Shown here: in pieces, positions 12,837 through 39,888 of the stretch | Layout of the letters: each line of letters starts with the position of its first letter | Numbering within the stretch: position 1 is the stretch's first letter | IMG/VR virus record: IMGVR_UViG_3300044998_001320 | From: an uncultured virus (IMG/VR IMGVR_UViG_3300044998_001320) | Taxonomy: Duplodnaviria; Heunggongvirae; Uroviricota; Caudoviricetes | DNA length: 64,000 nt | Direction: 5' to 3' (one strand) | The notes under the pieces: model-generated | Databases searched by the model: none | What the model saw: the letters and a program-made list of their open reading frames with translations, nothing else | Told to the model about the DNA's origin: nothing | Program-made: the position numbers and the translations under genes

Positions 12837-12878
12837 ATCCTTGCACCTTGCACTCTGTTGACTCGATGAGGATCGTAG

Positions 12879-13406: not shown

Positions 13407-13408
13407 AC

Positions 13409-13567
13409 TTAATCCTCAAAATCGAAGCCACTAACAGCAGCGGCGGTAGCTTCTAAATCTATCAACAATTGGCGCAAGGTTTCAGCGGCGGCGCTAGCTT
13501 CGTCAAAATCTATGGCAACTATTCCTAAACAAAGAATCGCCAGTTGCAACGCATCATTGATTGGCAT
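13409..13567 (-). CDS. Small hypothetical protein (52 aa)
   Basis: Hand-translated MPINDALQLAILCLG...GFDFED; stop lies 2 bp before the dcd start. Confidence 0.45.
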   Translation of the reverse strand: MPINDALQLAILCLGIVAIDFDEASAAAETLRQLLIDLEATAAAVSGFDFED

Positions 13568-13628
13568 CGTTTATGTCCATGTAGCATTGGTTACTCCCGG
13601 ATTTCTGTCCTTGCGATAGGGTTTCAAA

Positions 13629-14219: not shown

Positions 14220-14439
14220 AGTCGTTATCGTCTAACAACTTACCCCGATCAATCCCCCACTGATGAGCGATCAGCTTTCGCCACGTTGCTTCACTGGTCT
14301 TGAAGTGACGAAAGATCATCTTTGAAAACTCGCGCAACTGGTCGAGTGTCATTCGATCAATCAAGTAATTTGTTTTAGAGATTTCCAATTCTGCTTCTAA
14401 GGACAGGGGATTGTCGGTTAATTCCTCTTCCATCACCAT
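14212..14439 (-). CDS. nblA: Phycobilisome degradation protein NblA
   Basis: LSLEAEL...RMTLDQLREF...EATWRKLIAHQWGI aligns without gaps to the NblA pattern LSLEQQF...MSxDQAKDF...EATYQELLKHQWG; GGAGAG RBS. Confidence 0.82.
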   Translation of the reverse strand: MVMEEELTDNPLSLEAELEISKTNYLIDRMTLDQLREFSKMIFRHFKTSEATWRKLIAHQWGIDRGKLLDDNDFV

Positions 14440-14462
14440 ATCTCTCCAAGAGAAAAGATTGT

Positions 14463-14702
14463 TTAAGTTTCCAGGTCAGTATGACGTATTATTTGCACAA
14501 GTTCATGAACTAATCGAATCCCTTTGTTGTTGGAGGGGTTGCATGTTTCCGCATCAATTTTAGCAAGAACACGCTCAATTTCGCGCAAATTTCTTAGAGC
14601 TATTGACAGGTTGAATCGTAGACGGGCGATTTCTTGGTCGCGATCACGTAGTGCGCTTTGCACTTCAGGGTCTAGAAACACTGGGTTAACTTGATAGGGC
14701 AT
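14463..14702 (-). CDS. Hypothetical coiled-coil protein
   Basis: In-operon ORF overlapping the dnaG stop. Confidence 0.5.
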   Translation of the reverse strand: MPYQVNPVFLDPEVQSALRDRDQEIARLRFNLSIALRNLREIERVLAKIDAETCNPSNNKGIRLVHELVQIIRHTDLET

Positions 14703-16677
14703 CTCCTTGATAAACCTCCCTGATCTTTGCCCAAAATAAAATTTGTTCTTTGTTCAAATAGGACAACACAAGCTCGTTTTGTTCTTTGGATTTAAAGAGT
14801 TCATCCCAGGTTTTCAACAAAGGAAATAGGTCGGACACCTGAAAATCAGGGTGCTTACTGACATGATCCATTCCTTGTCTTAAATATGAAATAAACTCCT
14901 CAAGATTCTCATCCTCGGGCATTTTTGTCGCTGATTGCTCATGTTTTTCTGCCAGATCAATCGCTTCTATTTGTTTCTGAAGATCGCGACGCTCTTGGAT
15001 TTTTCTTAGCACTTCCCATGCCTGAAAAATCGTGGTAGCAGGGTCACTTAGGGACATCTGATCAAACGCCGATGGGAATGCCAGCGAATCAATGATCGCC
15101 GCCGGCAACCCCTCGATTTCTCCAATATCTGCTAGCCCCACGCCATCCCAAATCGCGTTCCACAGCATTGGCCAGTAGCAGTCCCAGCCGTTAATAGCCA
15201 GTTCTGCTTTCACCCGTAGATCCCAATCAATGGACGATGATTGATGCAGTAATATCCGAGCGATCGCCAGCTCTGCCGATTCCCCAGGGCGGAATACCAT
15301 CACCTCAGTAGAGCTGGGCGCACTTTTCTTGGGGCGGGGCGATGATCTTCGCTGGCTCCGCGCTTCATCAATGATCGCGCGACGGGCCTCGTCGTCGCCT
15401 GGTGCAAAGTAGCTGGCCATCTGACGCAGCCGTTCTAACCGCATTGCCGGGGCGGTGATCTGCGAGAGGAGAGTTGTTAAATCTTCACGAATCTGGGCGC
15501 GTGCCTCGATCGGTGTTGCGTTGTGTCGAGAGGCATCCAAGGCAATCAGCCAGGTCAGGTAATCCGGCGCTTCCACAAGTCCTTGGGTGATCACTGCTGG
15601 CCCGTGAGATCGGATTGCCTCGTCAGGATCCTTGCAATCCTCAGGTAACTCTAGCACGCGCAACGGTAGTCGCCCTGACAAAATCAACGATCGCATGGGA
15701 GGATCCTCGGATAAGCGGCGCGCTGCCCGCGTCCCTGCTTTGTCACGATCTAAGATCAGCACCAGAGGAGCCAGCCGTGCCAGCCGTGTCGCCAAGTCTG
15801 CCGACAGGTTCACGCCCATCACCGCCCCCGCTGGAATGCCCGCCTCGTTCAGGGCGATCGCATCGAAGTATCCCTCAACTATCGACAGAGATCGCCCTTG
15901 CTTCAGCAGCGGTCGAGCGTGATGCAACCCATAGAGCGTCAGGGTTTTGCGCCAGATACTGGTCTCGCGAGTGTTTAGGTACTTAGGCTCCCGATCATCC
16001 AGTACCCGCCCCGCCAGGGCGATCGCCCGCCCCCGATCGTCAAAGATCGGAATCACCAGCCGTTGCCACAGAAAATCTACGAATTCCCCCTGCTTGTTCG
16101 TTGCCAAGCCCGCCGCCTGGATCTCATCGGGGCCATACCCCGCCTTCAGGAGGTGTGAAACCAGTCCACCCCCCGCCCAGCCTAGTTGATACTTGTCAGC
16201 GATTTCCCGTTGTCTTATCCCTCGCCGCTTCAAATGCTCCCGTGCAGGTTGTCCGTCCGGCGTATAGAGCATTTGGCGGTAAAAGTCCACCGCCATAGCC
16301 ATCAGTGACCGTAGTCGATCCTGGGACTCTCGCTTAGCTTTTTGCGCCGCCCAGTCGGATCCACCCTTGGAGGTTCGCTCGATTACAACGCTGTACCGCT
16401 CCGCCAACTCCTCGACTACTTCACCGAAAGACCGCCCGCTCAACTCCATCAAAAAATTGATCGCATCCCCATGCGCCCCACAAGCAAAACAGTGATAAAA
16501 TCCTTTGTCTGGGCTAACTGTTAAACTTGGCCTTGTGTCTTGGTGGAATGGGCACAATCCCTGAAGATCCTTTCCGACCTTTTTGAGATGGATCTCGCGA
16601 CCAATAACTTCACCAATGTCAATCCGCCTCTTAAGCTCATCGATGGTGGATCGTGATATTCCTTGACTAATACTCAT
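14686..16677 (-). CDS. dnaG: DNA primase
   Basis: CPFH...HCFACG zinc finger, PKYLNT, TOPRIM IVEGYFD and DRDKAG, KDPDE. Confidence 0.95.
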   Translation of the reverse strand: MSISQGISRSTIDELKRRIDIGEVIGREIHLKKVGKDLQGLCPFHQDTRPSLTVSPDKGFYHCFACGAHGDAINFLMELSGRSFGEVVEELAERYSVVIERTSKGGSDWAAQKAKRESQDRLRSLMAMAVDFYRQMLYTPDGQPAREHLKRRGIRQREIADKYQLGWAGGGLVSHLLKAGYGPDEIQAAGLATNKQGEFVDFLWQRLVIPIFDDRGRAIALAGRVLDDREPKYLNTRETSIWRKTLTLYGLHHARPLLKQGRSLSIVEGYFDAIALNEAGIPAGAVMGVNLSADLATRLARLAPLVLILDRDKAGTRAARRLSEDPPMRSLILSGRLPLRVLELPEDCKDPDEAIRSHGPAVITQGLVEAPDYLTWLIALDASRHNATPIEARAQIREDLTTLLSQITAPAMRLERLRQMASYFAPGDDEARRAIIDEARSQRRSSPRPKKSAPSSTEVMVFRPGESAELAIARILLHQSSSIDWDLRVKAELAINGWDCYWPMLWNAIWDGVGLADIGEIEGLPAAIIDSLAFPSAFDQMSLSDPATTIFQAWEVLRKIQERRDLQKQIEAIDLAEKHEQSATKMPEDENLEEFISYLRQGMDHVSKHPDFQVSDLFPLLKTWDELFKSKEQNELVLSYLNKEQILFWAKIREVYQGDALSS

Positions 16678-18145
16678 CGTACCCCCCTTGCTCTTGTCCA
16701 TAGGCGCGGTTGTGGAAAGTTGAGGTTTCGTATTGGTAGAGAACTGGGAAGATTCCTGTACCGGTGCGTCGTCCCTTGAGCAGCAATATTTCAGCTTCCG
16801 CCAGCCGGTTTGATCGTTTCAATTCCGCCTCAAGGCTGATATCGAAATAGGCGGGGCGATGCAAGGCAAGCAAGTAACCAGCCGTCTCAGCAATTGCACT
16901 GGAATCCTTGATGTCGTTTTTAGTTGGACGCTTGTCATTTCTGTTCTCGATCGCTTTCCCTGTGACCTGAGAGAGGCAAAAGAAATTCACCCGCAATTCA
17001 AGGGCCAGGTTTGACAGGCGGATCATAGCTCCGCTGATTTCGTTGGCTGTGTTCACAGACCCACCATAGGAGGCCATCCGTTGCACGTAGTCGACATAGA
17101 ACGCCCCACCTTTTTGAGCGTGATTCAGAGACCAACGCCGTAGGATCGCCTCTAAGTGCGACGCTGACAGTCCATGGGCGTCCTGGATGTAGATCGGCAG
17201 GTTCGCCAGTTGAGACCGCGCCTCAATTAAAGCCTGTTGTTGTTGTTGGGACAGGGCCGCGCGCCCTGCATTTGACAGAAATGCCTTGACCGGCAGGTTT
17301 GCCAGCTTGGAGACCAATTGCTCTTCTAGTTGGTCTTTGGTCTGTTCGTAGGTAAAAAGGGCGACCGGGATTCCCTTCTCGGCTTGACTTAGCACCATGT
17401 CTAGAGCAAAGGACGTTTTCCCCATCGAGGTCATCCCTGCGATCACGGTGGTAAAGCCCAGCTCAAAGCCCCCGCCTAGATGCCGGTCAAGATCGGTAAA
17501 GCCCGATGGGATAAGGATCTTGCCGTCACCCTCGTTAAGGTAAGACTCGTAATCCGCCTCAGCCCTTACCCCAAGCTCGGCGACGTGCACTAGATCCTCC
17601 CCTCTTTGTGAGTAAGTGAGGGAAAACAAGGACTGGGAAACGCGAGTGTTCCGCTCTTCAGCGGTTAGAGACCGATCGCGACACAATCGCCTGAGATCTT
17701 CAAGGGTTTTGTCAATATGTCGGGCGATCGCAAATTCCAAAATCTGGTCAGCGATTCCGGATAAATTCGTAGCCGCGTAGCCGGAGTTGTAAATTCCCAG
17801 GATCCAGTCCTTGCCGCCGTAGCGCTTGTACCGATCGGGGTCAATGCCTGCGAGGTAAGAGGCTAATAGCTTAGCGTCAAGGGACTGACCTGATCGGTGT
17901 AGGAAGGACATCCCCTCAAAGAGCCACTGACAAGACGGCTCTACAAAACACCTCTCGGGGGGGTCTGTAAACGACTCAGGGCGGCTGCCTGACTCCAGAA
18001 CACCCAATACTTCGGCGAACTGATCAGGATAAGCCAGTAGCGCCCCGAGCAAGGATCGTTCCAGGTCAGGATCTCCGATTATTGAGGAGGGGATCTCAGT
18101 GATGGACAGGGGTGGAGATGGGGAGGAAGCGCGGGCAAAGGTCAT
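16667..18145 (-). CDS. dnaB: Replicative DNA helicase
   Basis: ERSLLGALL, SGFTDLD, Walker A AGMTSMGKT, VDYVQ, LSQ, KRP...KDSSAI, KGRRTGTG. Confidence 0.92.
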   Translation of the reverse strand: MTFARASSPSPPLSITEIPSSIIGDPDLERSLLGALLAYPDQFAEVLGVLESGSRPESFTDPPERCFVEPSCQWLFEGMSFLHRSGQSLDAKLLASYLAGIDPDRYKRYGGKDWILGIYNSGYAATNLSGIADQILEFAIARHIDKTLEDLRRLCRDRSLTAEERNTRVSQSLFSLTYSQRGEDLVHVAELGVRAEADYESYLNEGDGKILIPSGFTDLDRHLGGGFELGFTTVIAGMTSMGKTSFALDMVLSQAEKGIPVALFTYEQTKDQLEEQLVSKLANLPVKAFLSNAGRAALSQQQQQALIEARSQLANLPIYIQDAHGLSASHLEAILRRWSLNHAQKGGAFYVDYVQRMASYGGSVNTANEISGAMIRLSNLALELRVNFFCLSQVTGKAIENRNDKRPTKNDIKDSSAIAETAGYLLALHRPAYFDISLEAELKRSNRLAEAEILLLKGRRTGTGIFPVLYQYETSTFHNRAYGQEQGGYDEY

Positions 18146-18166
18146 CTTATTGACTCACTAAAAAGG

Positions 18167-19429
18167 CTAGAGGTATGGGGTCGGATCAAATCCCGGTTTG
18201 TGTCGAATCCCCTTATCAAGGGGTTCACCCGGTTTACGAATCAGAGTGTCTGGCACTGGAAGGCCTGAGCGCCTCGCTTGATCTTGTCGCCGCAGCCTCG
18301 ATTGTGCCCAGTCTTGCCAGGGGTGATCTGGGGGGATGTCGCGCCACCGAGATCGAATTTCCTCGTCGGACAGCGCCCTTGCCTCTTCGCTGGTGAGGGA
18401 GGGCTTGGGGTAAGGTGATGGCGGAGGTTGCCTGTCCCCTGGATGTACCTCCCCCCCGGAGGATCTTGCTCTCTGCAGTGAGATGGCTTCGCGAATCGCG
18501 GTCAAACGATTCAGCCCGTTCTCAAAATCGGCTTCGTTGAAAGACTTGAGAAACATGCAGGCGCGGCGCAGCCAGTTTCTTGCATCCCCCGGTTGAGCGT
18601 TGCTCCCCTGGGAAGTTGACCGCAGGTGCTTCAGCGCTTCATTGACCGCTTCGTCTGTGAATTCACCTGGATCGCAACTCTTGGGGGCAAATAATTCGCC
18701 AAACCCGAGGGCATAGGCCTCTCGCCAGTAATAGCTCGGGTGATTCCAGCGTACGTAGTCCACGATCTTGGCTCGCTCGATCGCCCCTGCGTCTCGCCAC
18801 TGGGCTGGACTGACCGGCAGGGTGATCGAGGGTTGGGTGACGGTGGGTCGCTCCATGACCGCTACCGCTGGACTGGGATGACAAAGCTGCGGTGCGGTAA
18901 CTGTGTCCACAGGTACAGAGGCAGGAGTCGAGGATTTGACCACAGCAGCGGCGCGGATTGGGCGACAGCTCCGCTGCTCACCCTTGAGTGGACGCTGCGA
19001 TCGCTTTCTGCGCCAAACCCGCCACCCCGCGACTGTCATAGTTCTCTCTAGGGTTTCGCCCGTCGCCTTGAATCGCCCTACGGCTTCATCTAACAGCTCC
19101 AAATCAAGTTCATACCAGGTAGTCTTGAACCCGTTGTAGAAACTTGAGCCGTGGCACTTCAGAATCCCGAGTGGCTCCAAAAGGGCGCGCGCCGCGTCAA
19201 TGTGTGATCGCTTAAGGTCGTAGTCTTCCCAGGAGGGAGTTCCATGGCGTTGCGTAGTCAAAGGCATGTGGAACCTGGTTTCTCCGCGCTCTTTTGCGCG
19301 GTTTTGCCAATACCAGCACTCCGCCAGAAACAAGGCGATCGCATGAGACCCGGTCATCTTGACGAAAATGCGCTGGATCGAGAGGACGTTGCGTTGTCCC
19401 GTCAGATCAGTCGGCGACAAGTGCTTCAT
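18167..19429 (-). CDS. Phage replication initiator-like protein
   Basis: N-terminal winged-helix-like segment (VKMTGSHAIALFLAECWYW...TWYELDLELL); directly upstream of dnaB-dnaG. Confidence 0.65.
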   Translation of the reverse strand: MKHLSPTDLTGQRNVLSIQRIFVKMTGSHAIALFLAECWYWQNRAKERGETRFHMPLTTQRHGTPSWEDYDLKRSHIDAARALLEPLGILKCHGSSFYNGFKTTWYELDLELLDEAVGRFKATGETLERTMTVAGWRVWRRKRSQRPLKGEQRSCRPIRAAAVVKSSTPASVPVDTVTAPQLCHPSPAVAVMERPTVTQPSITLPVSPAQWRDAGAIERAKIVDYVRWNHPSYYWREAYALGFGELFAPKSCDPGEFTDEAVNEALKHLRSTSQGSNAQPGDARNWLRRACMFLKSFNEADFENGLNRLTAIREAISLQRARSSGGEVHPGDRQPPPSPYPKPSLTSEEARALSDEEIRSRWRDIPPDHPWQDWAQSRLRRQDQARRSGLPVPDTLIRKPGEPLDKGIRHKPGFDPTPYL

Positions 19430-19449
19430 AGCTCATCTCACTCGTCAAA

Positions 19450-19899
19450 TTAAAAAAACAAATTCAAACGCCCTGTAATTTTAGTTTTGCTTATCAACGG
19501 CAGTAAAAAACAAGCCACGCCACCGGGAACCAGTAGCGAGGCAGAGGTTTTGACAAATTCAATCTTTGTCGAGAAAAAGAGGCTGGTGGCGATTGTATCG
19601 AAGCGTCCGATCTGTTCCTGTACCAACGGGTCTAGCACGCTAGCACAAACTCGCTTATAGCGCGGTGCGTGCGATTGCCCGACAACAACCCATGCATGGT
19701 TGACCTCAATACAGGCATTGCCGGGTGGCAAGGGTTGTGCAATCTGCCCTACGCCGGCTGCCATTTCGAGGGTGTGTTGATAAGTGAGATTCGCTAGTGC
19801 CTTGGCGGTCTGCTCCGGAGTTTCTCGGTTGTCGGGGCCTGCCCAGATGAGTGGAATGGCGTGACCAGATAGAAGTCGCCGTGTGGGTTGTGTTATCAT
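19450..19899 (-). CDS. Hypothetical protein
   Basis: First ORF of the leftward replication operon; ATG 19899. Confidence 0.45.
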   Translation of the reverse strand: MITQPTRRLLSGHAIPLIWAGPDNRETPEQTAKALANLTYQHTLEMAAGVGQIAQPLPPGNACIEVNHAWVVVGQSHAPRYKRVCASVLDPLVQEQIGRFDTIATSLFFSTKIEFVKTSASLLVPGGVACFLLPLISKTKITGRLNLFF

Positions 19900-20097
19900 G
19901 TTTCCATGCTTTTTTCTTGATATTGAGCCGCTAGGGGTGATGGCCTTGGCGGCTCTTTTGTAACTATACCCGACTTGGTGCAAGCTTGCACCAAAAAAAT
20001 ATCGAGGGCTGATGCTAAAATAGCGACAAACCACCAAACCGCCAAATCACCAGAACCTCGCGAAACCGTGCATTTGCGGGGTTCTATTTTTGTGCAT

Positions 20098-21453
20098 ATG
20101 CCCCCCTTGTCCCTAGCCCAGACTATTGCTGCCGCGATGATTGCCATCGAATCAAGCGCGTTGCTATATCTGTGTCGTCGGCTGTCGTTTGAAGGCGGTC
20201 TGTCGCGCCGGGTGCTAAGTTCCCTTTCGCTGATTTTGACGGCGGTGGCAATCGGGCGGGTGAGCGAGTTGCACTTCTGGAGAATTGACATCCACTGGGT
20301 AGCGGCGATTGCCGACCTGACAGTGGGCATTGTGATCCTATGGCAGATGGCGTCCCTATGGACTGATCGCCGTCGTCTTGCTCAGTCGGTGAAAATGTTG
20401 CAAGGTCGTAACCCTGCCGCCATCGCAGATGCAGTTAGTCGCTATCAGTCCCTGTTTGATAGTGCAGGTCTCGGCATCGCTCTTCGCGACACTTCGAGCG
20501 GAGCCGTGATCGAATGCAATCCTCGCTACCTTGAAATCGTTGGGCGACGACAGCAATCCCTTTTAGGTGGCGAGCTGTGGACAAAACCCGAGTTCGCACA
20601 GACCGAGGCTCAGTACCGCCGCCGCCTGATCGACGGAGAAATCAAGAACTACGAATTGACAAAGCAAATCATCTTACCCGATGGATCCTTGCGCTGGGTG
20701 CGTGTTTGGTCGGCATTGGCTAACGCAGGCAGTAAAACGATGGACGTCTTGGCAGATGTGGATCGGGAAATCCGGGCAGGGCTTGAACGAGATCAGTCAT
20801 TGGCACAACTAGAAGCGCTCAATCGAGAGCTTGAAGGATTTGCCTACGCCTGTGCACACGATCTCAAGTCGCCCCTGCGTCGAATGCGTCAGCGCCTACA
20901 GATAGCTCTGGGATTGGAGGGTGACGCCCTTCTCGCCAAAATTCGGGAGACGATCAGCATCGCTGATCACTTGACAGATTTCATTGAGCAACTCTTGGAA
21001 TATAGTCGCCTGAACCGTGACGAGGATTTGACCTTGATGCCTGGGTCGATAACGGAAATCGCCCAAGCAGTTGCGTATCAATTTGAAGATGAGGCTCGCT
21101 TCGAGATCGACTCCGATCTTCCCCGTATTCGGTGCAGCCCCCCACAAATTGAGCGATTATTTGCCAATTTATATGGCAACGCAGTTAAACACGCGGGCGT
21201 TGGGGTGCTGATCACCGTCACGGGGCGTGTCAAGGGTGCATTTGCTGAGATTGACGTAATCGACAATGGGCCCGGAGTTAGCAAAGGGTTGTCTCACAAT
21301 CTCTTCCAACCATTTGTTCGAGGGGAGGAATCGACCGGGGTCGGGATGGGTCTCGCCATTTGCCAGAAAATTGTGGCAGCCCATGGCGGCATGATCACCC
21401 TGGTTCCTTCCAAAGGCGGGGCCCATTTCCGCATGCACCTTCCCCTTGTTTAG
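20098..21453 (+). CDS. Membrane-bound PAS sensor histidine kinase
   Basis: About 3 hydrophobic helices; PAS/PAC (YQSLFDSA...CNPRY...DGSLRWVRV); H-box FAYACAHDLKSPL; N-box NLYGNAVKH; DNGPG; LFQPF; GVGMGLAIC. Confidence 0.93.
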   Translation: MPPLSLAQTIAAAMIAIESSALLYLCRRLSFEGGLSRRVLSSLSLILTAVAIGRVSELHFWRIDIHWVAAIADLTVGIVILWQMASLWTDRRRLAQSVKMLQGRNPAAIADAVSRYQSLFDSAGLGIALRDTSSGAVIECNPRYLEIVGRRQQSLLGGELWTKPEFAQTEAQYRRRLIDGEIKNYELTKQIILPDGSLRWVRVWSALANAGSKTMDVLADVDREIRAGLERDQSLAQLEALNRELEGFAYACAHDLKSPLRRMRQRLQIALGLEGDALLAKIRETISIADHLTDFIEQLLEYSRLNRDEDLTLMPGSITEIAQAVAYQFEDEARFEIDSDLPRIRCSPPQIERLFANLYGNAVKHAGVGVLITVTGRVKGAFAEIDVIDNGPGVSKGLSHNLFQPFVRGEESTGVGMGLAICQKIVAAHGGMITLVPSKGGAHFRMHLPLV

Positions 21454-21456
21454 TCA

Positions 21457-21870
21457 ATGCTGACAACTGTCAAACCCGTAGTCCTGCTTGTCGAAGATGA
21501 CCCCGACGATGCTGCTCTCTCCAGTGACTTCCTGAGAGCGGCCGGCTGTCGGGTAGTCCTTTGCAATTCCGGCGAGGCAGCTTTGCGAGAGATTGATCGC
21601 AAAACCCCTTGCGACGCGATCATTGCTGATTTGCGAATGCCCGGGATGGGTGGACACGAACTACTGAAAGCCCTCAAAGCTCGCAAGTTGCAATTTCTCA
21701 CTGTCATTCTCAGTTCTAGCAGCTACCACAGGGATATTGATCGCGCTTATCAGTCTGGGGCAAATCTTTATATCGAAAAGCCGCGAGACCTGGATGACTG
21801 GCGCAAGACTCTAGCTACCCTCGCTAATCTGTACTTCTTACCGTGGATCAAGAAACCGACAGCCTACTAA
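21457..21870 (+). CDS. Single-domain response regulator (Rcp1-like)
   Basis: LLVEDD, IIADLRMP, ILSSS...DIDRAYQSGANLYIEKP. Confidence 0.93.
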   Translation: MLTTVKPVVLLVEDDPDDAALSSDFLRAAGCRVVLCNSGEAALREIDRKTPCDAIIADLRMPGMGGHELLKALKARKLQFLTVILSSSSYHRDIDRAYQSGANLYIEKPRDLDDWRKTLATLANLYFLPWIKKPTAY

Positions 21871-22625
21871 TTCTCTGCGTTGAGGACAATGATGATGACT
21901 GGGTGGAGCTGCAAACCCAGCTCGCCTCAGCGAAGATCTATGCTGAGTTCGGCATCGCCTGGAAGCGTTGCAAGTCGATTCATCAGGCCAAGAGCGAAAT
22001 CGAGTCGCAGCGTCCCGATATCATCTTGCTGGACTTGAAGCTGGTTGATTCGGCAAACCCCTTGGACACGACACGCACGGTGTCCGAAATTGCAACCCCA
22101 CTTGGGATCCCAATCGTGATTTTGAGTGGACTGCGAGATGATCCAACGATCGCTCGCGAATGTTCGCTAGCCGGGGCCTTTCAGCATCTCCAAAAAGGGC
22201 GTTTTGACGAGATCAACCTCCTTAACGCGATCCGTCTTAGCTACCAACGCAATCGAGAACTGCAACGCCAGCGTGATCTGTACTTGAACGCCCAACTCTT
22301 GGCGGCTGAAAACTTAGCTCTAGCCGAACAAGCCGCCGGGGTGTTGACGAAATTACGAGCAGACTTACGGAGATTTGCTCGTAATGAGCGTAACCGGCGC
22401 GTAGTCTACACGGCGCTTTTGGCGTCCCTGCTCTTTGTAGCATTCCCTTCGATCGAGGCGAACACTCTGAAACTAAAGGTTTCCAGCGAAGTGATCGGGC
22501 TGTTCACGATCCTTTGTAGCTTTATTTGGGGTCAAGGGACTTTTCATGAACGGCTGAGGCAAGCTGAGTCCTCCCACGAAGTGATCATGCAACTCAAGAA
22601 GCGTCACCAGGATTCAGAGGACTAG
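21843..22625 (+). CDS. Receiver domain fused to a coiled coil and two predicted transmembrane helices
   Basis: ILCVEDN, ILLDLKL, ILSG, LQKG; hydrophobic VVYTALLASLLFVAF and VIGLFTILCSFIWG. Confidence 0.85.
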   Translation: MDQETDSLLILCVEDNDDDWVELQTQLASAKIYAEFGIAWKRCKSIHQAKSEIESQRPDIILLDLKLVDSANPLDTTRTVSEIATPLGIPIVILSGLRDDPTIARECSLAGAFQHLQKGRFDEINLLNAIRLSYQRNRELQRQRDLYLNAQLLAAENLALAEQAAGVLTKLRADLRRFARNERNRRVVYTALLASLLFVAFPSIEANTLKLKVSSEVIGLFTILCSFIWGQGTFHERLRQAESSHEVIMQLKKRHQDSED

Positions 22626-22914
22626 GTGGGTCAAGATGGTCGGCTATATTCCGTAGTTCAGCGGCTATGCCCGATCGATCGCCGCCAAGCAGGTCAACCT
22701 CCAAGTGAGATTCGATTGTCAAGACCTTCGATAGCGGCATGGTATCAACCGTCCCATTGACTAGCTGAGTGATTCGGGGGGGTGAAACACCGATCACTCG
22801 CGCAAGCGAAGACCTTGCTCCGTGAGTGGACAAGGCTTGTTGAAGCCGATCACGTAGTCCTTCAGAGGCAAATCGTAGTCGTAGGGTTAGATACATTTGG
22901 GGAAATGCTTGCAT
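22594..22914 (-). CDS. XRE/Cro-like HTH regulator
   Basis: SSLARVIGVSPPRITQLVNG. Confidence 0.75.
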   Translation of the reverse strand: MQAFPQMYLTLRLRFASEGLRDRLQQALSTHGARSSLARVIGVSPPRITQLVNGTVDTMPLSKVLTIESHLEVDLLGGDRSGIAAELRNIADHLDPPSPLNPGDAS

Positions 22915-23016
22915 TATTTTTAATCTTACGGTTAAAATTAAAAATAATCAAAAGCGACTGCCAAAGCCTACACAATAAACGGCGATCACCAACCCCACAA
23001 CGAGGAATCAAGGCAT

Positions 23017-23367
23017 ATGTCGATGCTGAAAATCCCGGCTGTAATCAAACCCTCAGAATGGGTTGAAGAGCTGCGCACAGCTATTCAACGCGAGCGACAC
23101 CAGTGGCTGGCTGCTGGGTATTACGACGAAAACATTCCCATCGAAGAAATTGAATCTGATCAAATTGAAGCTTTTCTTGAGCGGCTTCGCGACTTTGGCT
23201 CAGCGAACACCCCAGGCGAACAATCTCGTTTTTTTGCGGTCTGGATGAAGCAAATGAACCTCTCCCTGAATGCCCTGAAGGAATCTAATTTTGAAGACTT
23301 TCTCTGCGTTGATTCAGCTGAAAAAATCAGGGACGGGATTGCCAAAGAAATCGAAGGGTATCAATAA
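23017..23367 (+). CDS. Hypothetical acidic protein
   Basis: ATG with upstream GAGGA; divergent from the HTH gene. Confidence 0.6.
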   Translation: MSMLKIPAVIKPSEWVEELRTAIQRERHQWLAAGYYDENIPIEEIESDQIEAFLERLRDFGSANTPGEQSRFFAVWMKQMNLSLNALKESNFEDFLCVDSAEKIRDGIAKEIEGYQ

Positions 23368-23395
23368 GTAAGTGCTGCTCAAAATTCAAGCCAAG

Positions 23396-23821
23396 TCAGG
23401 ACTGAAACAAGGCTTGCTCAGCAGCTCTACGACGGATCAATCCTGCCAAAACTTTGCCGCCGCCTTTGTTCCAGCGTGGAAATTCAGCGGCGGCTCCTTC
23501 GTAGTCCCCCTTGTTTAGTTTTGAAAGCAGCGTGGACTTAGACAAGGCTCCTAGTCCCACGTTGTATGCAAAACTGACCAAAGCATCAAACTGAGATTGT
23601 GTCAAGGGAACGTTGACCAGTCGATTAACTCCCGCCTCAAACTCTGCAAGCTCTGCCCGCAGCATTGCCTCTGCTTGTTCTCTGGTGATCTGCTGTCCAG
23701 GGCGAACCCCTCTTGTGCAGCCCCACCCGATTGTCCAGACTCCTGCTGGACATTTATAAGCCGTTAGATACAGTCCCTCAAATTGCTTGATAAGATTCAG
23801 TCCTTTGTCGCTGATTCGCAT
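23396..23821 (-). CDS. GH24 lysozyme (endolysin)
   Basis: [43 protein letters not shown]. Confidence 0.95.
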
Positions 23822-23827
23822 ACTTGA

Positions 23828-25597
23828 TTATTGGGCTAAAGTCAATAGCTCCAGATAAAATGGTTGATATCCTGTACTGCTTGGCTCAGTAAATTCCCAG
23901 GGCTTGGCCTGCCAGTTGAGATAAGGGATTTCGGCGTAGCGCTTTTGAATTGGCTGGTCAAGGATCGCGGTTTGATCTCCGGAATAGTACTGGCTTACCC
24001 CACCAACCAGGAAGCCCGGCGGTGGATCCTGGGTTGCTGCTGCCCCGCGCCCCCACTGGTAATGGTAGAATATCTCTACTGCGTTGGAGCACCCCAAAGA
24101 CCTCGCGCCGCTGAGATACACCTTGCCAAAGGGATTGACTCCGTGAAGGTAGTTGAGGCAGGCAATCCCCCGTGCTCGGACGCTGGCTTGGCGATTGGCA
24201 GGGACTTTCCCGTCGGCGATCGCCCGCAGGTTTTGAGATCCGTAAGCGGCCACCTTGAAGTTGCTACCCCAATGGTAGTCCCACTCCTTAAGTGAGGTTC
24301 GGTAGGGGTCGTCGGTTTGCATCCCAAAGCCATCGGAGTTTGCGACGATCGAGTTATACCGCTCTTGAATCGCATCAACAATCGCTGGTGATCGCAAGCT
24401 TGCAGGCAGCCGGGTGCAATAATGGGTAGCAGCATGGGCTTCGTAAGCGCGCTCTGTTCCCCAGTTATAGTCGACGCTGATCGGATGGATCTTCGTGTAG
24501 GTCGCAGCGATCGCCGTTTGGTACTGAGAGTTGCCGGTCAGATGCAGTAAGTAGACAGCCGCCACAAACTCAGCCGCCAACTGCCAATCCTCGGTTTGAT
24601 CGGCTCGCCCCGCTTGCACCCGGGGAGACACGGTATCTGGATCGTCGGCAGCCGTGTCTTTCGTGGAGCGTGCCTTGTACCAACTCCATGCACTGATTGC
24701 TCGCGCCTGAAGGTCGGCGGCATAGCCTCCATACCCCAGGCGATCGCGCATCACCAGGGCAAAATGAGCGAACAACCCAGCAGCGGCAATCGTACTGCTG
24801 GTCGTCGGCGCAGCATAGAACCGGGGGCGTGTATCGCTGGATACTGGCCATGCCTCGATGCCGGGCGTAGATACCCCAACCTTTAGAGCAACCGAGCCAT
24901 CGGGGAACTGAGCCTTTACCCAGCTATCGATTTCCCACTTGATCTCTGCCAGCACATCGGGCAGGGAGGCTCTGGACTCGGGAATCCCTAGAGATAGGCG
25001 ATCATATAGGGAGCTGTGGCACTCATACAGAGCGATCAGGGTGTGGTAGTTTGCCGCGAAGGTGCAATAGCGGTTCGTGTCCCCAGCATCAAAGTGTCCC
25101 CCACGCAAGTCTCGCTCAGTGGCGGGGGTGTTGTTGGTGATCAACCGGGCGACTTGGTCTTGATTGTACGCAGCGGCGCGAGGCCAGTGCCCAGCATAGC
25201 GACGAAGGACGGTATGACTAGACCGCTGGTGGTAATAAGTCCGCCAGGCGGCAATCAGCGCTTCACGGTAAACCTGTGGATGGATCCTGAATGAATAGGA
25301 CGTCTCACCGCCGGGTTTGGTGTCCACGATCTCGTAGACCCCTGGGCGGGTAACAGCGGAAAAATCGAAGTGATGAACCTTGTCGCCACTGAGGGTATGA
25401 GTCGCGCCGGCATTCCAGGCGACCGGAGTCCCACTAAAGACGACCTCCCCAGTGCCCCGGCGGCGTACTTGCAGGGTGGTTCCGACGATGTAAGGCTCAT
25501 CACTGCCGTAGCCAGACTGAGGATTTTGGATCACTGCCACCTTGGTGTCATCGGGTCGGTAGCCGATCTGGTCAACGTGGATGTGTTTGATGGGCAT
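23828..25597 (-). CDS. Glycoside hydrolase family 9 with N-terminal CelD-like Ig domain
   Basis: IHVDQIGY, FDFSAVTRPGVY, YYHQRS, DLRGGHFDAGD, EIKWEID, WGSN, HGVNP, WEFTEP; start MPIKH at 25597. Confidence 0.88.
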   Translation of the reverse strand: MPIKHIHVDQIGYRPDDTKVAVIQNPQSGYGSDEPYIVGTTLQVRRRGTGEVVFSGTPVAWNAGATHTLSGDKVHHFDFSAVTRPGVYEIVDTKPGGETSYSFRIHPQVYREALIAAWRTYYHQRSSHTVLRRYAGHWPRAAAYNQDQVARLITNNTPATERDLRGGHFDAGDTNRYCTFAANYHTLIALYECHSSLYDRLSLGIPESRASLPDVLAEIKWEIDSWVKAQFPDGSVALKVGVSTPGIEAWPVSSDTRPRFYAAPTTSSTIAAAGLFAHFALVMRDRLGYGGYAADLQARAISAWSWYKARSTKDTAADDPDTVSPRVQAGRADQTEDWQLAAEFVAAVYLLHLTGNSQYQTAIAATYTKIHPISVDYNWGTERAYEAHAATHYCTRLPASLRSPAIVDAIQERYNSIVANSDGFGMQTDDPYRTSLKEWDYHWGSNFKVAAYGSQNLRAIADGKVPANRQASVRARGIACLNYLHGVNPFGKVYLSGARSLGCSNAVEIFYHYQWGRGAAATQDPPPGFLVGGVSQYYSGDQTAILDQPIQKRYAEIPYLNWQAKPWEFTEPSSTGYQPFYLELLTLAQ

Positions 25598-25604
25598 GGC
25601 TTGA

Positions 25605-26444
25605 CTAGTAGGCGATCGCGTAGACTTTAGCCGTGCCACCAGAAATCGACTGGAGGGAGATTCGCACCGATGGGCCATCCACGGGAAGTTCCCACGCCAC
25701 AGATGCGAATTCCCCAGTGGTAGCAGTTGCAATCTCAGTCGCCAGGTCGCACACATAGAACGTGCGATCGCCCGGGGCCGTCGACCCAGCGACCCGGCGG
25801 AACTCGACAGCCAATCGGAGCAGGCTGTCCATCTCGGTTCCATAGGCGGACACCTTGATTCGACTGGCCCCAGCGGGCACGGTAACAAAGTTGGCAGCGC
25901 TAAACGGGACGGCGCTTGTGGACTCAAAAAACGGGTTGCCGGAGTTTAAAGTCACAGGAGTGAAGGGTGTAGGGGTGGGTGTAGGGGTGGGAGCAGAGCC
26001 AGGCGTAGATGACAGGTTGTTGATACCATCACGGATCTGTTCGAGGGTCACAGAAATCGCGCCCAAGATCTGATGGGTGGAATCGCGCCCGTTTGCCTCC
26101 TGATCACGGAAAGCGGAGACCCGATCATTCGTAGTTGACAACAGCGCGCTTTGTCCACTTAGTTGGTTGAGGATGGCAACCAAGCGGCTTTCCAAGGTTA
26201 CTCCGGGTGCGCCAGGTAACCCGAGCTGCGCTGATAGCTGATTGATTGAGTTGACGATCGGTGGGGCGGGGCTATCCGCGCTAGCAGACTCGATCGCCGC
26301 TAACTGATCAAGCAGGGCGTCCCACTGGCTTGTCACCTGACGAGTCGTGAGTCCGCCGTCCGTTGGGGCAACCACGACTACCGGCGCTTGCAGCCCATCC
26401 GGTAATTCAATCCAACGCTCTTGACTTGGATCAGGGCGGGGCAT
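25605..26444 (-). CDS. Putative fibre-like structural protein (coiled coil, PT linker, beta C-terminal domain)
   Basis: Located in the fibre cluster; paralogous to 27229-28002. Confidence 0.55.
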   Translation of the reverse strand: MPRPDPSQERWIELPDGLQAPVVVVAPTDGGLTTRQVTSQWDALLDQLAAIESASADSPAPPIVNSINQLSAQLGLPGAPGVTLESRLVAILNQLSGQSALLSTTNDRVSAFRDQEANGRDSTHQILGAISVTLEQIRDGINNLSSTPGSAPTPTPTPTPFTPVTLNSGNPFFESTSAVPFSAANFVTVPAGASRIKVSAYGTEMDSLLRLAVEFRRVAGSTAPGDRTFYVCDLATEIATATTGEFASVAWELPVDGPSVRISLQSISGGTAKVYAIAY

Positions 26445-26713
26445 TATTCAGCGGCTCCTTCGCTAGGGGTCGATTCGGCGCGCTGGATTTCGATCGGGTC
26501 GTCAGCCCGCTGGTCAATCCAAGACTCCATTCCGTTGTCTGCGTAGACCAAGTGCACCACCTCAATTGGATGGTCATCAATTCGGACAAAGCGCTGCTCA
26601 ACGCGCTCGACTCGAACCCACTTGTCAGTGGCGCTTTGGCGCACTTGATCACCAATCTGAACCTCGCGGGCGAGGCTGGTGAATTCACGGACTCTCTTGC
26701 GGGGTGCAGCCAT
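26444..26713 (-). CDS. Hypothetical small beta protein
   Basis: Tightly packed in the operon. Confidence 0.6.
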   Translation of the reverse strand: MAAPRKRVREFTSLAREVQIGDQVRQSATDKWVRVERVEQRFVRIDDHPIEVVHLVYADNGMESWIDQRADDPIEIQRAESTPSEGAAE

Positions 26714-26717
26714 TTTC

Positions 26718-27239
26718 TTACGCCTCCATCGCTAAGATGATATCTGCTCCAGTGACCAAGCGACCCAAGTGGTATTGGGCCCAACTAACAGTTTCCAGGG
26801 TGGTACGCGCGTCGGGGTCTCCGGCGGCGACATCGATCGCCCGGACTGCCACCGGATCGAACCGCCCAAGGATCGCCGCCGCTTGATCGCCGTTGATGAT
26901 CAGGGCTACCCGCGCCGCTTGAATCAGGTCTGTAACCTGCTTGCTAACACTGGTTGCGCCATGGGGATGGGCATGCAATAGTTGCCTTAAGAACTCAATG
27001 GTCAGACTGTTGGACATCAGCCCAGCGATCTGGTCGTCGCGCAGCAACCCCTCGCTAACCAAGGTGGGCAGATCGACGGGCTTCAGGACGGGCTGGACGG
27101 CCGGCCCTTGGGTTGGATCATTCAACAGGGTGCACGCATTGGGAATACGCGCGTCGATCGGCCAAGCCTCCATATCAATCTCATCAAGACGATCGCGCAA
27201 CAACGCCAACTGGTCTGCGGTCAGGTCACTAGACATCAC
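26718..27239 (-). CDS. Hypothetical protein, possible fibre chaperone
   Basis: Tightly packed in the operon. Confidence 0.6.
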   Translation of the reverse strand: MMSSDLTADQLALLRDRLDEIDMEAWPIDARIPNACTLLNDPTQGPAVQPVLKPVDLPTLVSEGLLRDDQIAGLMSNSLTIEFLRQLLHAHPHGATSVSKQVTDLIQAARVALIINGDQAAAILGRFDPVAVRAIDVAAGDPDARTTLETVSWAQYHLGRLVTGADIILAMEA

Positions 27240-28002
27240 TCACCTCGCTGGCAAAAATCGTCAGGTTACCAGTGCTAACCGACCGCACGTGAATCACCGC
27301 CTCCTTGGCTCCTTGCGCGGGTATTTCCACCGCATCGGCCGCGAACTGCCCTGCCAAGTTGACAGAGGTGGCAGCCAGATTACTTGAACGCAGCCAGCGG
27401 CGTGACAGCAACGGCGTACCCACAGCAGACCGCAGCTCTACAGATATCGAAGCCGTAGCGTTGTTAACTGAGAAGTAGGGCTGGAGCAACAGAGACTTGG
27501 TACGCCCAGTCAAGGCGATTGGATCGCTGTTGGCTGCACCGGTAACAGCATTGATTGCGGCGATTCCACCATTGAGAGACGCATTGGATTCGATGACGGG
27601 TTGATTTAATCGCGCCAGGATCTGACTTAGCAGCACCTCGCTATCGGCAAGGTCTGTGCGAATCAAAGCCAATCGTTGCCCCACAGAAACGAGGTCATCT
27701 CCTAACAGTAACCCCTTGATTGCTTGCAGGGTCAAACGTGTTTCTGCGACCAAGCTATTAGACTGGGATATAGTCAATCCCATTGCTTCGACCAAGTCAA
27801 AAATCGAATCGCCGCCCTCGTTTTTGAATAGCAGCAACAGATTGCCAAGGCGGCTGTTGATTTGCCCGATTGCTGCGATCTGAGCATCGGTCAAGGCGAC
27901 AGGCAATCCCTCAATCGTGGGCACAACAGCAACGGCCTGCACAAACCCCCCATCTGGATGGGGATGCCAAAGTTGCTGAGAATCGGGTGGACGTGGAGCC
28001 AT
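27229..28002 (-). CDS. Putative fibre-like structural protein
   Basis: N-terminus similar to 25605-26444; coiled coil then beta domain. Confidence 0.55.
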   Translation of the reverse strand: MAPRPPDSQQLWHPHPDGGFVQAVAVVPTIEGLPVALTDAQIAAIGQINSRLGNLLLLFKNEGGDSIFDLVEAMGLTISQSNSLVAETRLTLQAIKGLLLGDDLVSVGQRLALIRTDLADSEVLLSQILARLNQPVIESNASLNGGIAAINAVTGAANSDPIALTGRTKSLLLQPYFSVNNATASISVELRSAVGTPLLSRRWLRSSNLAATSVNLAGQFAADAVEIPAQGAKEAVIHVRSVSTGNLTIFASEVSDV

Positions 28003-28014
28003 GGTTGTTATTTT

Positions 28015-29445
28015 TTATCCAAAATAGTCTCCAAACAGCGCAATTTCTTGAAAACAGAAATAGTTAGCACCAGAGCTATTGGCCCCTGTTTGCAGTAAGG
28101 CTAGCTGATTGCCCTCTATTGGATTGGTGACCGGGAAAAAGAAATACTGATTTGTTCCAGTAATCTGGGTTTGGTTTGTCCAGGATTGAACCGTAGTCCA
28201 GTTAACTACATTCGTGGAGTCCGTCAAAGACGTGCCAGAGTTGACCTTGAGGGCAAAGTTTCGAGGGTAATGGTTATCAGAAGATCTTGTCTGAATCCAA
28301 AACCCGGTACATCGAAAGGGACTCTGAAATTGCCAGCCACGCCAACTATTGGCGGTACTGGGGGTATGCACGTCTTGCCCGCCCGCGACCCGATCGGTCA
28401 GATTTAGCACCGTGCCGCTTCCGTTTCCGCTGGTAGCCGCGGTTAGGATCGCCGTATTGGAAGGGTTTACCCAAGTGCCGTTGCCTTGGACTAGCCCCAG
28501 ATAGTGGAACAGATCGGCGGCGTTCAGGGGGTTGGCGGGGTTATTGGCTAGGGGTGTGCCGTTGTAGGTGAAAGACAAAAAGCCTGGCTCACAATCCAGA
28601 CACTCCCAGCTAGTCCCCTGAGTGATGAATCGTCCCTGAAATCCGGGGCGGATATATACGAAAGTACTTGCGTTAATTGGGCTGTTGGTATTGCATCCAA
28701 ACCCCGAAAGGGTGGCAGAGCCGGCGGCGTTGACGCGAATCGATGTGGGACGGGAGTTCGCCAAGATAATCACGCCGCTAGGTGTGGAGGGCAATGTGAA
28801 GACACCTCCACCCTTGACCAGGTAGCGACGGTTTGGCTCCAAGGTGGCATTATTTGTGAGCACTGTCCATTGCTCTGAGTCCCAGACGGGTGCACCGCCT
28901 TGGATCTGCAACGTCTGTCCAGTGGACGCGCCTTGTCCCGATATCAAACTGTACTGGGCAGCCGACATCAGCCCGTCCGTCGTTGAGGTGGCCAGTCCTG
29001 GCGAAGGGATTGTGACCACACCGGTTTGTCCGTTGACGCTGATGACAGTCCCGGGAGGGGACTGGGAGAGCCAATTGGATAGATTTGAGGCGGGCAACGC
29101 AGCAAGGATGAACGACTGCCCGCCCAAGTCTGATCGCACGGCCACCGCACCCACCTCAGCAGCCAGGGAGAGCATTGCAGCTTGGCTGGACACAGGGAAG
29201 ACCCCCCGCGTGGTGCTGATGTCTGGCAGGTTGGCGACAGGAACCTTGCCGGTCGCATCCAAGGGTGCTACACCGTTGGGTTGCCCTAGCTGTGCAGCGC
29301 TTAGCCGGGATTGCAGAGCGACTGGTAGCCCATCCACGTCGGATTGCTCGTGTCGATGCCCTGCTGGCACGGTTTTACCGCCGACGATCGCGGCGGCTTC
29401 TGTAGACCATTGGGACACCAGAGAGAGGGCGCGATCACTCGTCAT
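28015..29445 (-). CDS. Tail fibre protein with C-terminal discoidin (F5/8)-like domain
   Basis: HRHEQSDVDGL, GVAPLDATGKVP, VISVNGQTGVV, DGLMSA fibre motifs; YPRNF...NWT...EIALFG. Confidence 0.8.
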   Translation of the reverse strand: MTSDRALSLVSQWSTEAAAIVGGKTVPAGHRHEQSDVDGLPVALQSRLSAAQLGQPNGVAPLDATGKVPVANLPDISTTRGVFPVSSQAAMLSLAAEVGAVAVRSDLGGQSFILAALPASNLSNWLSQSPPGTVISVNGQTGVVTIPSPGLATSTTDGLMSAAQYSLISGQGASTGQTLQIQGGAPVWDSEQWTVLTNNATLEPNRRYLVKGGGVFTLPSTPSGVIILANSRPTSIRVNAAGSATLSGFGCNTNSPINASTFVYIRPGFQGRFITQGTSWECLDCEPGFLSFTYNGTPLANNPANPLNAADLFHYLGLVQGNGTWVNPSNTAILTAATSGNGSGTVLNLTDRVAGGQDVHTPSTANSWRGWQFQSPFRCTGFWIQTRSSDNHYPRNFALKVNSGTSLTDSTNVVNWTTVQSWTNQTQITGTNQYFFFPVTNPIEGNQLALLQTGANSSGANYFCFQEIALFGDYFG

Positions 29446-39043: not shown

Positions 39044-39077
39044 GACCTATTCTGGTTTCACCAAGCTTAGTACGATC

Positions 39078-39785: not shown

Positions 39786-39888
39786 ATCGTCGGTCAAGTA
39801 GACGTCCTAAATTTTTCGTGAAGCGAGGGCAGACTCCATCAAGCCTCGTGGAAAATAGGGAGCTTCCATCTGTGTTGATTTGAACTCT

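Follow-up and report, generated by a model that had tools for sequence, protein, structure and literature searches.

A sensor kinase and two receivers, one with a predicted membrane anchor, encoded as one operon in tailed-phage DNA

Phages eavesdrop on the signals of their hosts with single receptors, or carry lone kinases. The available text on phage phiCDHM1 of Clostridioides difficile describes AgrB, AgrD and AgrC with 'no associated response regulator'; its kinase homologue has no recognised sensor domain and is taken to be derived from the host (PMC3901668). In similarly partial accounts, some pelagiphages have a histidine kinase within a curli gene cluster (PMC9599517), and jumbo phages have a divergent receiver domain that was 'never found in two-component' systems (PMC7824862). 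Full-text searches of the literature, subscription journals excepted, turned up no account of a whole kinase-receiver system encoded by a phage. Here we describe a cassette of three genes, a sensor kinase and two receivers, at 20098-22625 of a 64,000-nucleotide stretch of DNA from an uncultured virus (IMG/VR record IMGVR_UViG_3300044998_001320). The whole of this stretch is called the window below.

Two deposited phage genomes hold parallels. The cyanophage My-WqHQDG of Microcoleus (OR578706.1, 88856-91946) has a cassette in its replication region, divergent from the DNA primase, which consists of a kinase of 545 residues (N-terminal hydrophobic helices, PAS, HisKA, HATPase), a receiver of 138 residues, a second receiver of 171 residues, and then a protein of 179 residues with one C-terminal transmembrane segment. 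The available part of the preprint on this phage describes a jumbo myovirus with a lytic lifestyle, which CRISPR spacers link to Microcoleus, and its main text, to the extent available, makes no mention of the cassette (10.1101/2023.04.12.536658). The kinase is annotated in GenBank as 'hypothetical protein'. The second genome, that of Burkholderia phage vB_E427 (PQ789820.1), contains a complete kinase-regulator pair, which is likewise annotated as hypothetical proteins.

The three genes of the cassette

The cassette consists of three tightly packed open reading frames (ORFs) on the + strand. Together they form a single, closely coupled operon for a kinase and two receivers, all three of them intact. 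It fills exactly the interval 20098-22625, where the first-pass annotation, made from the letters alone, had read three contiguous genes for a kinase with transmembrane (TM), PAS, HisKA and HATPase parts and for two receivers; the ORF coordinates, Pfam matches and motif alignments bear this out. The first gene (20098-21453) encodes a sensor histidine kinase of 451 residues, identified from Pfam, a family alignment, hydropathy and profile matches to the PDB. The second (21457-21870) begins 4 nt past the kinase stop codon and encodes a stand-alone receiver of 137 residues without an output domain, here called RR1 (Response_reg, 2.7e-21). The third (21843-22625) encodes a receiver of 260 residues that is predicted to be membrane-anchored, here called RR2, identified from a Response_reg match (9.5e-8, 32.6 bits against a Pfam cut-off of 30.2), a seven-member alignment, hydropathy and an AlphaFold2 model. 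Its start codon is a GTG that overlaps RR1 by 28 nt, and this start is kept in the relatives.

The kinase matches HATPase_c (2.4e-20) and PAS_8 (2.5e-7) above the Pfam cut-offs, and its family profile finds the DHp and CA domain structures of KdpD (7e-25) and EnvZ (9e-24) in the PDB. The H-box histidine, H254, lies in the sequence CAHDLKSPL in the DHp hairpin, and is invariant in all five aligned family members. The motifs of the CA domain are equally invariant in these five, namely the N-box (N357/N361), G1 (D389-G393), the F-box (F403/F406) and G2 (G414/G416/G418). The protein has every catalytic motif of a HisKA-class sensor histidine kinase, and is predicted to be active. Many HisKA kinases keep a Thr or Asn four residues after the phosphorylated histidine, for phosphatase activity; at this position the alignment has Ser in four members and Ala in one.

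The N-terminal part of the kinase is predicted from hydropathy to form three TM helices (about residues 5-25, 39-57 and 65-85), which stand ahead of a cytoplasmic PAS domain (about 115-225) in all five members. The AlphaFold2 model, which is of low confidence, places helices at 6-29, 34-56 and 66-86, in agreement with hydropathy. The loops between the TM helices are only about 12 and 8 residues long and there is no extracytoplasmic domain. With loops that are almost absent, the kinase would be expected to read a signal from within the membrane or the cytoplasm rather than an external ligand, and the extracellular cue suggested in the first-pass annotation finds no support here.

The phospho-acceptor pocket of RR1 can be read from its sequence and is complete, with E13 and D14, D58, S86 and K108. 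Its best match in the PDB is the receiver of NtrC (3.7e-12), and it also matches Rcp1 (3.9e-7) and RcpB (1.2e-7), nearly over its full length. The corresponding pocket of RR2 consists of E14 and D15, D64, S95 and K118, and is invariant in all seven aligned sequences. All the catalytic boxes of the kinase (H, N, G1, F and G2) and the Asp, Ser and Lys of the receivers were therefore found as first described, those of the kinase and RR2 being invariant in the family alignments.

RR2 has an additional C-terminal half. After the receiver (REC) domain the chain continues as a long helix or coiled coil (about 123-185), then as two TM helices (188-205 and 215-231), and finishes in a charged tail. In the AlphaFold2 model, which has a moderate mean confidence (predicted local distance difference test, pLDDT, 74.8), residues 123-206 form a single unbroken helix that runs from the last helix of the REC domain into the first TM helix. 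When this model was searched using Foldseek, the REC part was matched, as were the REC domain and stalk of WspR, and nothing further. Only the REC domain was recognised in Pfam, PHROG and NCBIfam, with no match to a holin family, and residues 135-260 gave no usable match in the Atlas. In an exhaustive profile search of 1.84 billion representatives a single full-length cluster came up (1e-137), and the match after it (90 bits) covers the receiver part only. This leaves the C-terminal half of RR2 an orphan. Both receivers lack DNA-binding and enzymatic domains, as judged from Pfam and, for RR2, also from Foldseek.

The first-pass annotation had called the cassette a phosphorelay. This term does not hold, since no histidine phosphotransfer (Hpt) domain was found among 53 window proteins with Pfam or 43 with NCBIfam, in scans that partly cover ORFs under about 100 residues; the genes have the make-up of a branched two-component system instead. 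A PADLOC scan gave nothing but two faint REC matches, and an Rfam scan of the window gave no match. The PHROG families that match the cassette, phrog_857 for the kinase (5.4e-33) and phrog_731 for the receivers, are of unknown function.

Relatives of the kinase and of RR2 were found in ENA, Logan or JGI assemblies. The search for kinase relatives, in which 479 of 8000 scored candidates had E values of 0.001 or lower, gave four clusters of full-length relatives (72, 65, 60 and 59% identity), after which identity fell to 30%. RR2 has six relatives (67, 67, 63, 63, 61 and 48%), followed only by generic receivers with E values of about 1e-5. Eleven contig sizes are common to the kinase and RR2 clusters, matching exactly to the base pair and belonging to four lineages: 9965 bp in the first; 16976 bp in the second; 14525, 14826 and 14068 bp in the third; and 93188, 29286, 12062, 4934, 4799 and 4421 bp in the fourth. 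These shared sizes are most simply explained if both genes sit on the same contigs, in which case the pair is co-inherited. Kinase and RR2 would thus travel together, with unchanged motifs, in at least four further lineages over a divergence range of 59-72% identity.

Phage context, integrity and host

The window is DNA of a tailed phage (Caudoviricetes), and its phage context is solid. The structural genes within it include a portal (PF04860, 50.8 bits), a head-tail adaptor, a tape measure, baseplate and tail domains, and a weaker match for a major-head-like protein (5.6e-6); a terminase was not identified in the window. Scans with Pfam, PHROG, NCBIfam and tRNA models found no cellular housekeeping gene, integrase or tRNA in the 64 kb.

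Two independent contigs from Logan show that the cassette belongs to this DNA. One, from the run labelled X9, is 15,556 bp long and covers window positions 12719-28279 with 33 differences, at a flat depth of about 259. The other, from run X11, is 14,127 bp long and covers 14051-28153 with 116 differences and 24 gap letters, at a flat depth of about 234. Each runs without joints from the replication genes through the cassette to the endolysin and tail genes. The composition agrees: the tetranucleotide profile of the cassette correlates with that of the whole window at 0.80 (29th lowest of 123 windows), and GC content at third codon positions is 0.55-0.60 in the cassette genes and 0.57-0.63 in the replication genes. 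Spanning contigs and matching composition therefore make an assembly chimera, which the first-pass annotation had kept in mind, or a recent and unameliorated capture very unlikely. Six variant positions within the cassette, a sample of those present, comprise four synonymous changes and two conservative ones (V436I and A54V).

Among 185,579 species-representative genomes, a pattern scan picked up no close chromosomal copy of the kinase, the best matches being partial and 27-37% identical; the near-identical operon in host chromosomes that was first named as a possible counter-finding is not among them. This absence is also what a viral element left out of the binned genomes would show. The cassette is probably maintained by the phage, and is almost certainly neither host contamination nor a chimera.

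On its left, the cassette is divergent from the replication genes, as first described: the primase-DnaB side runs on the - strand up to about 19899, and the kinase on the + strand. The replication module (14686-19429) contains a DnaG-type primase (14686-16701, -) and a DnaB-type helicase (16667-18145, -), both identified with Pfam and PHROGs, and an ORF of 420 residues on the same strand that matches nothing in any library. An ORF of about 149 residues, also on the - strand, ends this side at about 19899. Genes for ThyX and a dCTP deaminase lie farther to the left.

The divergent intergenic region (19900-20097) contains a perfect palindrome of 20 bp (19975-19994), a candidate operator which occurs once in the window where none is expected, and two long hairpins formed by inverted repeats of 12-13 bp (19925-19955 and 20052-20085). 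The region 19900-20110 folds with z = -4.2, none of 200 shuffles being as stable, and is a candidate structured leader. Scans of the window for promoters and terminators gave results not above chance, with six terminator-like matches against 5.0 expected. It is worth adding that the X11 sequence has single-A insertions behind 19451 and 19992.

On its right, the cassette meets an ORF of 106 residues (22594-22914, -), which converges on RR2 and overlaps its 3' end by 32 nt. It resembles a helix-turn-helix (HTH) protein, probably of the Cro/XRE type, on the basis of matches that are all below threshold: YdaS_toxin (7.6e-6, 26.1 bits against 30), HTH_26 (2.9e-4, 21.5 bits against 22) and phrog_2339 (0.004). 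Matches to the PDB have E values of at least 0.13, and include a prophage Cro at 0.86. The earlier description of the cassette as convergent on an XRE regulator is thus right as to the convergence; with only sub-threshold scores, the identity of the regulator is plausible but not established. In the gap upstream of this ORF there is an AT-rich inverted repeat of 16 nt (22913-22948), 94% complementary, followed by a divergent ORF of 116 residues (23017-23367). With a palindrome and stable fold in the divergent gap, and a second inverted repeat by the HTH-like ORF, the cassette lies where phage regulatory regions sit.

Farther to the right is a GH24 endolysin (23396-23821, -; Phage_lysozyme 5.5e-54), and next to it a GH9 cellulase (about 23828-25594, -; Glyco_hydro_9 1.4e-33) with a CelD_N domain (1.3e-14). 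The cellulase, whose CelD_N domain is Ig-like, has no PHROG match and is the penultimate gene of the tail or late operon, with the endolysin gene directly after it. A possible role would be that of a depolymerase acting on a sheath or matrix that contains cellulose. Beyond it there are some 15 kb of tail and baseplate genes on the - strand.

Some other features of the window are recorded here. A protein like the DNA-bending proteins HU and IHF is encoded at 56021-56335 (-), upstream of the head genes (IHF beta, 5.8e-14, under the NCBIfam cut-off; phrog_379, 2.1e-19). Two adjacent ParB-like genes lie at 39018-41232 (+), the second fused to an N6/N4 DNA methyltransferase (phrog_498, 2.1e-100), and at 62536-63105 (+) lies a gene for a membrane protein of the 'metal-binding' DUF2227 family, which has three hydrophobic helices. 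A segment of about 400 bp (12394-12795), within an ORF at 12372-12836 (-) whose product of 154 residues matches no family, has a depth of up to about 1900 in four runs, against about 259. The same segment occurs on contigs of 4824, 10865, 2438 and 889 bp, which differ from the window on both sides of it. Extra depth and differing flanks indicate that the segment is shared, at about 95%, with a more abundant entity, either the host or a second phage.

The phage is quite probably a cyanophage. The stretch is present in thirteen runs from ten studies, four of which are possible sources; all the runs are labelled as hot-spring or microbial-mat metagenomes and none is listed as RNA. The cyanobacterial octamer HIP1 (GCGATCGC) is present 40 times in the window where 1.70 copies are expected, a 23-fold excess, and no shuffle contains more than 5; for its core, CGATCG, the numbers are 140 observed and 20 expected. 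The HIP1 sites are spread across the structural and replication genes, with none between 19343 and 24215, a gap that is not clearly beyond chance. Cyanobacteria contribute 28 of the 80 best cellular kinase loci, a share biased by the pattern pre-filter and by the large kinase families of filamentous cyanobacteria. Other evidence is either neutral or points away from a cyanobacterial host: the nearest named relatives of the endolysin are proteobacterial, the look-alikes of the GH9 protein in the Atlas are from Myxococcota, Actinomycetota and Kiritimatiellota, and the primase is 34-40% identical to cyanobacterial DnaG, no closer than to other phages. When window positions 12001-32000 were compared with 401 cyanobacterial genomes, two candidates being scored per genome, no spacer-like or prophage match was found, only conserved stretches of primase and lysozyme. 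The word cyanophage, used in the first-pass annotation, therefore has the HIP1 excess in its favour, and no host was identified.

Possible output of the cassette and competing explanations

On the basis of these observations we lean towards the hypothesis that the cassette is a working, self-contained and branched two-component system, whose predicted output is post-translational and at the level of the membrane. The kinase would sit in the inner membrane of the host by its bundle of three helices, with almost no external loops, and would read energisation, redox state or a metabolite through this bundle and the PAS domain. It would autophosphorylate on H254, and the phosphoryl group would pass to D58 of RR1 and D64 of RR2. 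Since neither receiver has a DNA-binding or enzymatic domain, the output is expected to be post-translational, by protein contacts. The last REC helix of RR2 is continuous with the coiled coil and the first TM helix in the model, and phosphorylation should therefore alter the packing of the membrane hairpin. RR1 might serve as a phosphate sink or as an adaptor. The most likely use would be to let the state of the host cell govern when a membrane-level step of infection takes place, such as lysis or the exclusion of other phages. The cassette may thus let the virus itself read that state.

A more specific version of this hypothesis, which we regard as distinctly doubtful, is that RR2 is a phosphorylation-gated membrane effector, in which a REC domain and a rigid helix control a hairpin similar to that of holins or antiholins, so that the kinase sets the time of lysis or blocks rivals. 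RR2 has two TM helices and a charged tail at its C-terminus, and its gene stops 770 bp short of the endolysin gene, on the opposite strand. No small TM ORF was seen next to the endolysin, which speaks for this version. Against it, RR2 matches no holin family, and an ORF of 163 residues with two TM helices (38268-38759) is a rival candidate for the holin. If it were true, the moment of lysis or the exclusion of rivals would follow the energetic state of the host, which tracks light and redox in mat cyanobacteria, and the separate receiver and membrane genes of My-WqHQDG would be an unfused version of a recurrent cyanophage module.

Several observations weigh against the hypothesis of a self-contained system kept by phages. 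The HisKA domain of the kinase scores only 18 bits in Pfam (0.0031), under the cut-off of 26.9, and the AlphaFold2 model of the kinase (pLDDT 55.3) has too low a confidence for a fold search. The phage status of the relatives is argued for only by one contig of 93 kb and by absence from binned genomes. The relatives are not in IMG/VR, whether searched with the kinase, the kinase alignment or the RR2 alignment, though some members come from JGI samples, and none of the 120 listed endolysin relatives lies on a contig that matches a cassette relative in size. About 12.6 kb of the 76,585-bp contig that bears RR2 lies beyond the window, and the DNA could be that of a phage or of a prophage. The similarity to the My-WqHQDG cassette is low: the two kinases are only 27% identical (3e-19), its 138-residue receiver is only 30% identical to RR1 (4e-7), its 171-residue receiver has no significant BLASTP match to the REC domain of RR2 (hhalign gives 76% probability over 88 columns), and its 179-residue protein has no similarity to window proteins.

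In searches for the wider family, the head protein and DnaB of the window led to no family member in IMG/VR, JGI metagenome contigs gave only three distant kinases, and the 120 listed endolysin matches are generic lysozymes of about 62-70% identity. Among GenBank phages the window has no close relative by DNA and its major head protein has none, while primase matches reach only about 35%.

The first alternative is that the cassette is a moron, a cargo captured from a host, which serves the lysogen when expressed from a prophage and has no role in phage development. Cellular operons of the same gene order occur in 5 of 79 loci, phage vB_E427 carries an ordinary OmpR/CusS-type pair, and the cassette lies on the strand opposite to both flanking operons, as is typical of morons. 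The high density of HIP1 is also consistent with long residence in cyanobacterial cells. Nevertheless we consider a moron unlikely, because the window has no match to an integrase or repressor family, the composition of the cassette is fully ameliorated, and the kinase clade, which has no close cellular copy, is separated by a very long branch from every one of the 80 cellular kinases. The analogous cassette of My-WqHQDG, moreover, is in a phage that the available text of its preprint describes as lytic (10.1101/2023.04.12.536658).

Rather less probable is a take-over of the host by cross-talk, in which regulators of the host would be phosphorylated by the phage kinase, or host kinases would lose phosphate to RR1 and RR2, with host signalling rewired in the course of infection. 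Cross-phosphorylation of host regulators is one of two roles put forward in the first-pass annotation, the other being a developmental decision. It would account for the fact that neither receiver has an output domain of its own. The cyanobacterial share of the best cellular kinase loci (28 of 80) and the resemblance of RR1 to the Rcp-like receivers that partner such kinases are also consistent with it, and the kinase of phiCDHM1, which comes without a regulator, has been proposed, in the text available, to act through the AgrA of its host (PMC3901668). However, the presence of two cognate-looking receivers in the same operon, and the co-inheritance of kinase and RR2, argue for a self-contained pathway. 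The kinase is about 30% identical to any cellular kinase, so that specificity for host partners cannot be inferred.

A relay to transcription is highly doubtful. Here a phosphorylated receiver would act via the HTH-like protein on the palindrome, and so throw a switch between early and late genes or between lysis and lysogeny. Position favours such a relay, in that the cassette lies where phage regulatory regions are found, with the unique palindrome in the divergent promoter region, an inverted repeat upstream of the HTH-like ORF, and this ORF converging on RR2 and overlapping it. The HTH assignment is sub-threshold, however, and the relay has no precedent in these data. An artefact, whether a chimera of host signalling genes with phage DNA or a chromosomal island, is hardly credible and largely refuted: the window is metagenomic, part of the contig is unseen and the relatives are absent from IMG/VR, but two further runs give single contigs across both junctions at flat depth, phage genes extend for tens of kb on both sides with no cellular housekeeping gene in 64 kb, and the composition is uniform.

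Comparison with known systems

Among cellular systems, the gene order of the cassette is that of a known module. Out of 79 cellular kinase loci from the pattern scan, counting only + strand ORFs of at least 90 residues that start -60 to +400 nt from the preceding stop, five show a kinase, a single receiver of about 150 residues, and then a REC fusion; two further loci have both receiver genes in the reverse order. The third gene of the five ends in HisKA-HATPase in two Coleofasciculus loci and one from Anaerolineae, and in GGDEF in a deltaproteobacterial and a planctomycete locus. This recurrent cellular module can be described as a PAS kinase, an Rcp-like receiver of about 150 residues and a REC fusion (loci L018, L029, L028, L047 and L049).

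The similarity extends beyond gene order. In the Coleofasciculus (L018 and L029) and Anaerolineae (L028) loci, the neighbourhood of the kinase H-box, FAYxxSHDLxxPLR, is also shared with the phage kinase. The 150-residue Rcp-like receiver of Coleofasciculus aligns with RR1 from end to end at 30% identity, including the C-terminal extension, and the REC domain of the third gene is 32-34% identical to residues 5-141 of RR2. In contrast, the cellular kinases are longer, have more PAS domains and are 27-37% identical to the phage kinase, and none of the third genes ends in a coiled coil and TM hairpin (three end in HisKA-HATPase and two in GGDEF). On the evidence of these alignments and predictions, the phage cassette has the gene order of the cellular module, with a third gene that ends in a membrane hairpin instead of an enzyme. 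In a quick IQ-TREE analysis of 85 catalytic cores, the phage kinases lie apart from all 80 cellular kinases on a branch of 2.42 substitutions. With so long a branch and no resolved sister, no donor of the kinase can be named.

The first-pass annotation had compared the cassette with the Cph1/Rcp1-type operons of cyanobacteria. The comparison stands for the layout, a kinase followed by a single-domain receiver, and RR1 does match Rcp1 and RcpB nearly over its full length and is 30% identical to an Rcp-like receiver. It fails for the input and for the ranking of matches. The phage kinase has only PAS, HisKA and HATPase domains, with no GAF or PHY chromophore module; phytochrome kinases (4e-17) rank under KdpD and EnvZ for the kinase family profile; Rcp1 and RcpB (about 1e-7) rank well under the NtrC receiver for RR1; and the phage has a second receiver, which is predicted to be membrane-anchored. 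With no phytochrome input, and with neither Rcp1/RcpB nor phytochrome kinases as best matches, the likeness is therefore an analogy of layout and not a sign of membership. For RR2, the closest structural parallel is WspR (PDB 3bre and 3i5a; Foldseek alignments of 164 and 159 columns, 26% identity), in which the last REC helix likewise runs on as a signal-carrying stalk. The C-terminal part of WspR is a GGDEF cyclase, whereas that of RR2 is formed by two TM helices and a charged tail, for which no relatives could be detected.

Among phages, most records with kinase matches are bacterial contigs or fragments. The only one that covers more than 80% of the kinase, the 103-kb 'Bacteriophage sp.' MW462191.1, was rejected, as it looks like a bacterial contig: around its kinase (13989-27299) there are genes for an MFS transporter, aminopeptidase N and glutamine synthetase adenylyltransferase, and ParS/CprR-like genes. 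The cassette differs from phiCDHM1, as described in the available text, in having two receivers and no genes for signal synthesis. The pair of vB_E427 is of the ordinary OmpR/CusS type, with a DNA-binding regulator (REC-Trans_reg_C beside CusS-HAMP-HisKA-HATPase), and is unrelated to the present cassette beyond the shared domains.

My-WqHQDG is a closer parallel, which lies in architecture and position, the membrane part having no demonstrated homology. In that phage a gene of its own encodes the membrane segment, which has one TM helix; in the window the segment is fused to the receiver and has two. The phages also differ: My-WqHQDG is, from the available account, a jumbo myovirus from river mats with a lytic lifestyle; its GC content is 46%, and there is no HIP1 in an 8.7-kb part of its sequence. 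It follows from My-WqHQDG and vB_E427 that the uniqueness implied by the first-pass annotation cannot be maintained. Complete kinase-receiver pairs already sit unannotated in deposited phage genomes, and as a sequence the cassette is not unprecedented.

What is new here is a two-component system kept by a phage that includes an orphan membrane-anchored receiver, its anchor being predicted from hydropathy and the model. The kinase and its two receivers would form a self-contained system, retained in a phage lineage and placed in a regulatory region, that has no transcriptional output but a membrane-anchored receiver in its stead. If our hypothesis is correct, the virus would measure the state of the host cell itself and act on it post-translationally, unlike phages with lone kinases or single receptors. 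The similar and unremarked cassette beside the primase of an unrelated Microcoleus phage hints that this may be a recurrent module of cyanophages.

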